Assembly (NCBI GenBank): GCA_951406725.2
Contig: OX597815.1
Span: 7,502,001-7,566,000, forward strand
Reading direction: 5' to 3'
DNA: 64,000 nt
From: Octopus vulgaris
Taxonomy: Eukaryota
Shown here: positions 49,824 to 50,496 of the stretch, piece after piece
How the letters are laid out: every line of letters begins with the position of its first letter
Numbering within the stretch: position 1 is the stretch's first letter
Notes under the pieces: model-generated
Told to the model about the DNA's origin: nothing
Databases searched by the model: none
What the model saw: only the letters and a program-made list of their open reading frames with translations
Position numbers and translations under genes: made by a program

Positions 49824-50496
49824 TTTTTTTTTATCTAGTTTCAGCTCACGAGCTGTGGCCATACTGGGGCACCGCCATTTGGTGTTGCTACATGGTTTTA
49901 CTTCACGAATGCTTTTTAGCAATTGCCATTTGGTGCGTGGGAGAGTTCGATGCAACTGCCCTCATCTGCACCTCCTGCCGTGAAGTTGGTTCATCTGGGA
50001 CACCTGACAGGAAGAGATCCAGTTTTACTTTAATGACATATATCTATTAAAGAATATATCAATGAAATTAAAACTGATCATAAATATGCAACTACATGTC
50101 TTGCAAACAACTTACACATGCAAGTGCTACCAGTCAAAAGCTCCGTATACCGGAAGCCAGCAAGTGTATGGGGTCATCAGGAGAGAATGCGCGCCGTTTC
50201 GGGGCCTACCTCTCGACGGCATCAATACGCACCGGCCCCACTTCACTGATATGAGGTCCCGCTGGCTAGATCACCTGGTTATCAAATAAAGCTCAATATT
50301 CTTCTAGCCATCGCTCATCGTCTCTTTTTAACCAAATCCAGTGGTTAGCCTTTTCCACTGTAGTTTGGATATCGGTCATGGTGGTATTGACTTTACGATG
50401 AGTTAGCCCTAGCGATAACAACAGTCGTCTCACACTGTGTCCAACGAACCCTCTACATCCAACTTCGATTGGAAAATGTTCTGCTTTCCAGCCTGA
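49824..50496 (-). mobile_element. 5'-truncated RLE non-LTR retrotransposon (HERO-like): ORF C-terminus, 3' UTR of about 470 nt, A-tail
   Basis: GWKAEHFPIEVGCRGFVGHS..EKANHWIWLKR (50293-50493) carries the EVGCRGF...WLWxKR signature of HERO-like RLE ends. The element ends ..CTGAAACTAGATAAAAAAAAA and interrupts a Helitron remnant. Confidence 0.8.
50166..50221 (-). ncRNA. Putative strand-swapped hammerhead ribozyme in a LINE 3' UTR, intact core
   Basis: TGCCG-TC-GAGAG ... CCCC-GAAA-CGGCG ... CTCTC-CTGATGA-CCCC. Stems I and III are perfect; canonical stem II is missing. Confidence 0.66.

Follow-up and report, generated by a model that had tools for sequence, protein, structure and literature searches.

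In canonical hammerhead ribozymes of types I, II and III, the three conserved blocks, i.e. the cut site (S), GAAA (G) and CUGANGA (C), follow one another in the orders CGS, GSC or SCG. Other orders were described by Eckert et al. (2023, PMC10085705). According to the accessible part of that paper, type-SGC hammerheads (HRIMA-1 and variants) originate from metatranscriptomes, none being found in known organisms' genomes other than one bacterial GCS candidate, and type-CSG hammerheads originate from soil DNA. Both cleave in vitro, at 0.004–0.19 per minute. The CUGANGA block is assumed there never to be interrupted, and no insertion of more than 1–2 nt beside it is known.

Hammerheads are also carried by retroelements. 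Those of Penelope-like pseudo-LTRs and animal retrozymes are, in the available sections of PMC6765202, PMC11167929 and 10.64898/2026.07.22.740005, canonical, mostly minimal type I and often dimeric, and occur on GIY-YIG elements. Naiads, which are Penelope-like too, are reported to be without canonical hammerheads in the available sections of Craig et al. (2021, PMC8557442), where ‘HHR_core / HHR_half_core’ motifs are noted in Naiad 3′ UTRs, including those of O. vulgaris and E. scolopes. LINEs of the R2 group have HDV-like ribozymes at the 5′ end (PMC13580325 and PMC6765202, parts of each). The HERO clade comprises LINEs which encode a restriction-like endonuclease (RLE), insert largely without site specificity and have a single ORF with a reverse transcriptase (RT) (Kojima and Jurka, 2015, PMC4640811); the accessible text of that paper mentions neither a ribozyme nor a partial tandem for this clade.

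We analysed a stretch of 64 000 nucleotides from Octopus vulgaris (contig OX597815.1, positions 7 502 001–7 566 000; ‘the window’, to which all coordinates refer). An earlier note on this DNA had pointed to a strand-swapped hammerhead motif in a HERO-like LINE, within its 3′ UTR. The sequence elements were found as described there. On the minus strand, the GUC triplet (50217–50215), GAAA (50200–50197) and CUGAUGA (50180–50174) are present together with stems III and I, the core is intact, and the predicted cut (50215/50214) is 78 nt downstream of the LINE stop codon. The features are compiled in Table 1.

Table 1. Features of the motif and its host LINE (family A), and further carriers of the fold (families B and C), in the window.
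Feature	Position	Strand	Basis
Family A: R2-group (restriction-like endonuclease, HERO-like) LINE copy, 5′-truncated	50096–50495	−	29 other loci align at 93–95%
LINE ORF, C-terminal part (endonuclease region), TGA stop at 50295–50293	50293–50495	−	translation
P4 5′ strand, family sequence GGGG, with one G>A in this copy; partner is the strand right after CUGAUGA	50257–50260	−	
P5 hairpin, immediately between P4 and stem II; in this copy with a mismatch and a 1-nt insertion	50240–50256	−	
Stem II 5′ strand, first base G10.1	50234–50239	−	pairs in 26/26 relatives, positions 1–4
P3b 5′ strand, extension of stem III; presumable counterpart of the type-SGC ‘I’ helix	50227–50233	−	
Stem III 5′ strand, U16.1, C17	50215–50221	−	sequence; cut predicted at 50215/50214
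Stem I 5′ strand	50209–50214	−	98.6% of cells paired, unfitted alignment
Stem II 3′ strand (C11.1 at 50201) and GAAA (G12–A15.1)	50197–50206	−	
3′ strands of stem III and P3b	50187–50196	−	
Stem I 3′ strand and CUGAUGA (C3–A9)	50174–50186	−	
P4 3′ strand, immediately 3′ of A9	50170–50173	−	
3′ tail, fixed end, without poly(A)	50096–50169	−	aligned loci and tandem copies
Family B, same split-core fold, predicted cut 37233/37234	37157–37289	+	
Family C, same split-core fold, G8>A in this copy, predicted cut 46182/46183	46112–46241	+	

The host element, family A, is represented by 2753 first-look candidates from a sequence search of the 2.8-Gb genome. The copy in the window is a truncated insertion of about 400 bp in all (50495–50096). 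In all 30 aligned loci the 3′ end is at about 50096, without poly(A), while the 5′ ends vary. The 3′ UTR, which houses the motif, is about 200 nt long. Intact young copies have an ORF of 1175 residues in a unit of about 3737 bp. The RT domain PF00078 is present in relatives (Pfam search of homologues), and the best PDB matches of one full-length homologue are R2 proteins; the C-terminal piece of the LINE ORF gave no Pfam match. Family A has the single ORF with RT, the C-terminal CCHC knuckle and the PD-(D/E)xK-like nuclease of the R2 group, the latter two being presumed by eye from their sequence patterns. Neither a GIY-YIG endonuclease nor a telomerase-like RT, the hallmarks of Penelope-like elements, was found in family A, whose protein is R2-like. 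The flanks of the insertion are unrelated at 30 loci, and insertion is thus mostly non-site-specific, as described for HERO elements in the accessible text of PMC4640811. The HERO label, a putative one, fits with this behaviour.

The hammerhead motif is part of a more extensive fold, to which we refer as the split-core fold. From 5′ to 3′ its strands are P4a, the P5 hairpin, IIa, P3b-a and IIIa-UH up to the cut, followed by Ia, IIb-GAAA-IIIb, P3b-b, Ib-CUGANGA and P4b. The hammerhead core is present (C3-U4-G5-A6-N7-G8-A9 and G12-A13-A14), and A15.1–U16.1 occur as U-A in all of 35 aligned sequences. The cleavage triplets of 26 non-redundant relatives are GUC, GUU, GUA or AUA and never NUG, the parser having demanded NUH. 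Stem II, which had been taken to be absent in its canonical form, is made by the upstream strand 50239–50234 pairing with 50206–50201; G10.1 is G in 26/26 and C11.1 is C in 24/26 of the relatives. The TGGGGCC at 50234–50240 had been considered as a bridging strand or a switch. It does bridge, as the 5′ strand of stem II, but it is no switch, because P4 is closed by a separate G-run further upstream and both pairings coexist. A stem II directly (0–2 nt) after A9 was not found, pairing at position 1 being seen in only 2 of the 26. An SGC-style stem II, with its strand after CUGANGA, was rejected: it pairs at chance level (41.7% against 41.7% expected), and the stem II strand lies upstream.

The block order is S-G-C, and not CGS, GSC or SCG. 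In the accessible description of type SGC (PMC10085705) we find the same order of cut site, GAAA and CUGANGA, all core bases, the same short linker between stems I and II, and a fourth helix that connects these two stems at their far sides. In the split-core fold these sides are joined by P3b, which is paired in 78.6% of cases and varies on both sides in 5/5 pairs, and which we infer to be the equivalent of the type-SGC ‘I’ helix. The 5′ strand of stem II, however, follows CUGANGA in type SGC, while here it lies upstream, P4 and P5 are inserted at A9/G10.1, and block C (Ib-CUGANGA-IIa) is interrupted. The circular order of the strands is that of the SGC/CSG class, opened within the new helix P4, with P4 and P5 sitting between A9 and G10.1. 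Type CSG, as far as the same source describes it, has this circular order too, and its stem II 5′ strand likewise leads to the stem III 5′ strand; in contrast, it joins CUGANGA to stem II, opens between stems III and I and is devoid of P4 and P5. The RNA would thus work like an SGC or CSG hammerhead, yet belong to neither type. Since no precedent was found in the literature covered for two helices between A9 and G10.1 and a limit of 1–2 nt has been stated for insertions, activity is not guaranteed.

In 14 of the 26 relatives there is a signature between stem III and P3b which we take to be a kink-turn; family A has a 5′-side bulge instead. A kink-turn-like loop is a typical protein site.

The S-G-C block order has already been published, whereas the strand order with the two extra helices P4 and P5 appears to be new. 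In the literature covered, which was mainly open-access text without figures or Repbase Reports, no account of the split-core fold or of a HERO hammerhead was found. Hammerhead variants with additional helices are mentioned in the accessible text of PMC13725137; the split-core fold is absent from that text and from the accessible parts of PMC3088659, PMC10162972, PMC13580325, PMC7650587 and the 2026 retrozyme preprint.

With a strict descriptor, the window contains three S-G-C matches, at 50216, 37232 and, weakly, 54207; a further match, at +46181, is obtained when one core mismatch is allowed. Two matches, one of them with the full fold, arose in 20 dinucleotide-shuffled versions of the window (2.56 Mb), and the motif is thus more than chance. 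Compared with a young copy, the copy at 50216 has a G>A change in P4, a G>A change and a 1-nt insertion in P5, and a C>T change in the extension of stem III; the catalytic core is intact despite this slight decay of P4 and P5. Neither Rfam at its gathering threshold over the whole window nor Rfam at E ≤ 1 over seven loci, three of them full-length, detected a ribozyme family. Thermodynamic folding without pseudoknots misses the split-core fold (z = +0.81 for the window copy). Contigs from four presumed RNA runs span the motif. One of them starts at 50213, 1 base off the predicted cut; this was set aside, because contigs cannot reveal RNA ends and the other contigs cross the predicted cut.

The fold is conserved among family copies and relatives. 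For family A, the full parse with a perfect core was obtained in 22 of 30 loci and in 19 of 20 young loci which bear the ORF. As relatives we used 80 metagenome loci encoding proteins of 30–59% identity. The strict descriptor matched 45 of these HERO-like loci, in all cases on the sense strand and 52–635 nt past the ORF match, and the upstream arrangement is complete in 42 of the 45; shuffles of the 80 loci (4.8 Mb) gave five S-G-C matches. A refined parse recovered the fold in 54 of the 80 loci, 47 of them with a perfect core. Among the 26 missed, 12 have less than 150 nt of 3′ sequence and nine more were matched by a covariance model, while the remaining L095, L108, L109, L137 and L159 were matched by neither method. 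The loci bearing the motif are scattered over the whole of a quick tree of the relatives, based on the C-terminal region. As a control, a full parse was sought in 80 viral loci preselected for GAAA ahead of CUGAUGA, and none was obtained among the matches listed; no protein relative was found on viral contigs. In L094, L096, L133 and L139, a tRNA-like sequence was seen by eye just past the ORF, ahead of P5 or replacing it.

Pairing was evaluated in two ways. The set of 26 relatives omits L094 and L146 (uncertain register), L099 (contig end), seven loci with core mismatches and sequences more than 80% identical, including family A. In this set the first four pairs form in 25–26 of 26 sequences for stems I and II, P4 and P5 and in 24–26 of 26 for stem III, mostly with several pair types. 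P4, P5 and stem II abut without spacer in 25/26, and when P4 and P5 were placed without a term for stem II, the next base started a stem II of at least 4 bp in 25/26. Because this parse was guided by pairing, covariation was also scored on 35 sequences that had been selected for their intact core and aligned with MAFFT without fitting. The score was 0.504, against 0.184 in shuffles (reached in 0/500) and 0.10–0.271 for slid partners. On this alignment stem I is paired in 98.6%, stem III in 93.9%, P3b in 78.6% and P4 in 76.0% of cases. The values for stem II (60.6%) and P5 (42.3%) are low due to register shifts, and their support therefore comes from the pairing-guided parse. Within the core, G30, G49, T50, GAAAC and T-G-A-G are invariant in the 35 sequences, as selected above. 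Compensatory changes are found in every helix, by comparison of metagenome loci and families. A covariance model (R1), which contains the nested helices only and was given 66 of the 80 loci to search after 14 near-duplicates or cut-short loci had been left out, recovered 58 of the 66; it missed families B and C and kept the register shifts of P5. We conclude that the split-core hammerhead-type RNA is real, widespread and covarying, and that it is a predicted ribozyme. Judged from the sequences, it is quite probably catalytic.

The same layout with different stem sequences is found in families B and C of the window. These are non-coding, (TA)n-associated repeats (+37129–37490 for B and +45790–46300 for C) with 2572 and 4102 first-look candidates, respectively. 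G8, which is changed in the window copy of family C, is intact in most copies of that family. The unit of family B is about 878 nt long, non-coding and partially tandem, like an animal retrozyme. An autonomous partner of families B and C was not found, both being non-coding in the loci examined. We considered whether family B might be a pseudo-LTR belonging to the GIY-YIG element which lies upstream in L039, but dropped this idea, the motif being absent nearby in 18 of 20 loci of the element; the two others are the site in L039 itself and an antisense copy of another family. In L257, antisense to a GIY-YIG element, the fold occurs in a fourth family, whose B/C-like stems form a third set. A young Penelope-type element with a C-terminal GIY-YIG domain and a cysteine linker is present in L271 and about 20 places with a 781-residue open frame; judged by its motif, it is probably Neptune-like. 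No split-core motif was found within 1.5 kb after its ORF.

The window contains other repeats as well. One SINE-like repeat with a tRNA-like head is seen by eye in two copies, at 51840–52215 (−) and 36525–36900 (+ strand view, reverse orientation). Three near-identical tandem units of about 180 bp are located at 55400–55980, and long, strongly skewed simple-repeat arrays with stop-free frames on both strands at 5666–8554 and 41258–43938.

In Naiads, the full split-core fold can be read where the accessible part of PMC8557442 notes core halves. By eye, Naiad_EuTe, Obim, Ovul, Amil, Aacu, Anas and Plae have it in full and Esco has it in a decayed form; no split-core motif was seen in Naiad_Omin and Naiad_Ppla; this reading covered part of the 54 consensus sequences, and the names were partly assigned from file order. 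Four nematode Naiad consensus sequences, read by eye in the accessible part of Supplementary File S5 of PMC8557442, have CSG-order hammerheads with perfect stems I, II and III in the 3′ UTR, soil DNA having been the sole known source of type CSG. This suggests that the ribozymes of Naiads have one non-canonical topology in common, opened at two different places.

The genomic layout of family A copies is that of partial tandems. Among 12 long copies, all five which reach the unit start are joined, at one fixed junction, to an upstream copy's 3′ end (315–1980 bp), and none of the 12 stretches has more than two units. A search with the 5′ UTR gave 30 loci, of which 27 extend to the junction, and 27/27 continue seamlessly into an upstream tail; this set partly overlaps the 12 long copies, and L236 and L241 resemble one duplicated insertion. 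In tandem copies the tail runs 7 nt further, straight into the 5′ UTR of the next unit, and full-length copies lack a separate 5′ end. A 5′-truncated upstream copy followed by a full unit is the arrangement of Penelope-like pseudo-LTRs. Of the 27 copies, 20 extend past the upstream cut site, which lies 126 nt ahead of the junction; seven end between cut and junction and none at the cut. Further, 7 of 38 metagenome loci with more than 400 nt past the motif, plus L138, continue into a related ORF at its N-terminus. In family B an upstream tail is present in 26 of 30 loci, with 20 copies starting 3′ of the cut, five at a clear distance on its 5′ side and one no more than 1 nt away. The layout of both families indicates that the template exceeds one unit or is circular, and that RT copies through the cut site.

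Several single loci show further details. Three of the 27 copies (L231, L235 and L246) have their 5′ end 31–32 nt before the junction, within a palindromic tail hairpin; an RT stall or a second initiation site is possible. Inverted partial copies lie beside the main copy in L220, L233, L235, L240 and L245–L247, as known for Penelope-like insertions. In L211 the end of the second unit includes the 7 junction bases, and a 634-residue open frame of a different LINE RT (L211:7248–9149) follows directly.

These data also bear on the functions suggested in the earlier note. A pile-up of 5′ truncations at 50214 was one of the signs to be sought, but none is found among the 30 tail loci (the best 30 of 2231 candidates in a tail search, the window copy included), the nearest 5′ end being 39 nt upstream, nor do any of the 27 tandem copies end at the upstream cut; with this sample of the tail loci, a small excess could have escaped notice. 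The SINE-like 3′ RNA of about 390 nt does not agree with the end of the element at about 50096 in 30/30 loci, which leaves a piece of about 119 nt 3′ of the predicted cut. Instead of an uncoupling of ORF and tail, the partial-tandem layout points to unit-length processing.

We propose that the predicted ribozyme cuts tandem LINE transcripts and holds the ends, and that the RNA is closed into a ring which is reverse-transcribed for more than one turn, a model that in our judgement has an even chance of being correct. The RNA would cleave itself at 50215/50214. A transcript with two ribozymes would be cut twice and yield a cut-to-cut monomer of about 3.7 kb with a 5′-OH and a 2′,3′-cyclic phosphate. 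The 5′ product would stay bound via P4, II, P3b and III, and the ribozyme would re-form from both ends. Indeed, P4, II and III are predicted to hold the 5′ product by 14–30 bp (median 22, P3b excluded), with stem I and both core strands on the 3′ product; the paired ends of the monomer would thus be poised for ligation. Reversal of cleavage or a host ligase may close the ring. RT would then start internally at the fixed tail end, round the ring and stop variably in the second turn, which in the model explains the fixed 3′ end, the seamless junction and the variable upstream part. The outcome would be a partial tandem whose upstream part provides the 5′ ribozyme in the next round, as pseudo-LTRs do in Penelope-like elements.

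For some of these steps there are precedents. In the accessible parts of the literature, VS RNA combines ribozyme cleavage, ligation and subsequent RT from a circle (PMC6765202), and Penelope RT initiates internally (PMC11167929). The location of the ribozyme near the 3′ end, the partial tandems, the internal RT start and the proposed processing of tandem RNA are shared with Penelope-like pseudo-LTRs and animal retrozymes, according to the parts available of PMC6765202, PMC11167929 and 10.64898/2026.07.22.740005. Unlike those hammerheads, the split-core RNA is non-canonical, monomeric by its pairing, and carried by a LINE with a restriction-like endonuclease. Like the 5′ HDV-like ribozymes of R2-group LINEs, as described in parts of PMC13580325 and PMC6765202, it is a (predicted) self-cleaving RNA on an RLE LINE and may determine the template's 5′ end, but it is of another class, lies in the 3′ UTR and would act at the 5′ end only via the upstream partial copy.

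The partial tandems agree equally well with a linear multimer as template, and the R2 RT is capable of template jumping. An active ribozyme might form no covalent ring and only release the element from read-through transcripts of the host or of tandems, as the HDV-like ribozyme does at the 5′ end of R2, RT using linear tandem RNA that escaped cutting or jumping across the nicked, base-paired ribozyme. This would account for the partial tandems; promoters provided by an upstream partner are known for Penelope-like elements (PMC6765202, accessible part), and Rfam finds no other ribozyme family in three full-length loci. A cut RNA template, however, predicts 5′ ends at the cut, where we found 0/27 in family A and 1/26 within 1 nt in family B, and upstream parts of up to about 2 kb would presumably erode over generations unless regenerated. 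We consider this explanation rather unlikely. A lower probability is assigned to the possibility that the fold mainly binds protein or positions RT, or is a slow, protein-gated ribozyme tuning the RNA level, with cleavage being incidental to transposition. The PAc hammerhead sets an example, since it requires its protein to cleave, is dispensable for insertion in vitro and has no read ends at the cut (PMC11167929, accessible part), which also speaks against the ring model; genomic copies are intact across the cut site, and a kink-turn-like loop lies at stem III/P3b in 14/26 relatives. Yet the catalytic positions are kept across proteins of 30–59% identity and across unrelated retroelement classes while the stems are free to vary, which is the pattern of catalysis rather than of the binding site of one protein.

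That a switchable cutter in the 3′ UTR uncouples the ORF from the tail recognized by RT, or releases a SINE-like 3′ RNA, is very improbable. Its location in the 3′ UTR would suit this role and a cut would covalently part ORF and tail, but the two pairings coexist, the tail has 119 nt, none of the 30 loci found with the tail alone as query is a tail-only insertion starting at the cut, and the products would remain paired by 14–30 bp plus P3b. A chance resemblance to the hammerhead core, for which the missing Rfam match and the unremarkable folding energy might speak, can practically be dismissed in view of the shuffle and viral controls, the covariation and the presence of three families within one window.

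Extending the ring model, we tentatively suggest, with somewhat less than even expectation, that the split-core architecture (five helices around the core, with the ends shifted into an inserted helix and often with a kink-turn on stem III) is common to the whole LINE clade and to Naiads of different animal phyla and self-circularising, and that HERO-like LINEs transpose from circular RNA by rolling-circle RT rather than from a linear RNA with a tail. If true, the fold adds a hammerhead architecture which breaks the stated rule of an uninterrupted CUGANGA block. With thousands of copies in animal retrotransposons, compared with the metatranscriptome-only SGC hammerheads in the accessible text of PMC10085705, it would bring non-circular permutations from anonymous metatranscriptomes into animal genomes. 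It also offers a concrete answer where Naiads have been reported to lack hammerheads, and the role of retroelement hammerheads can be tested directly in one LINE of which young intact copies exist. Should the ring model be correct, an R2-related LINE would use a circular template, which bears on the question of how non-LTR elements define their ends, as well as on RNA-templated gene insertion and on tools for RNA circularisation.
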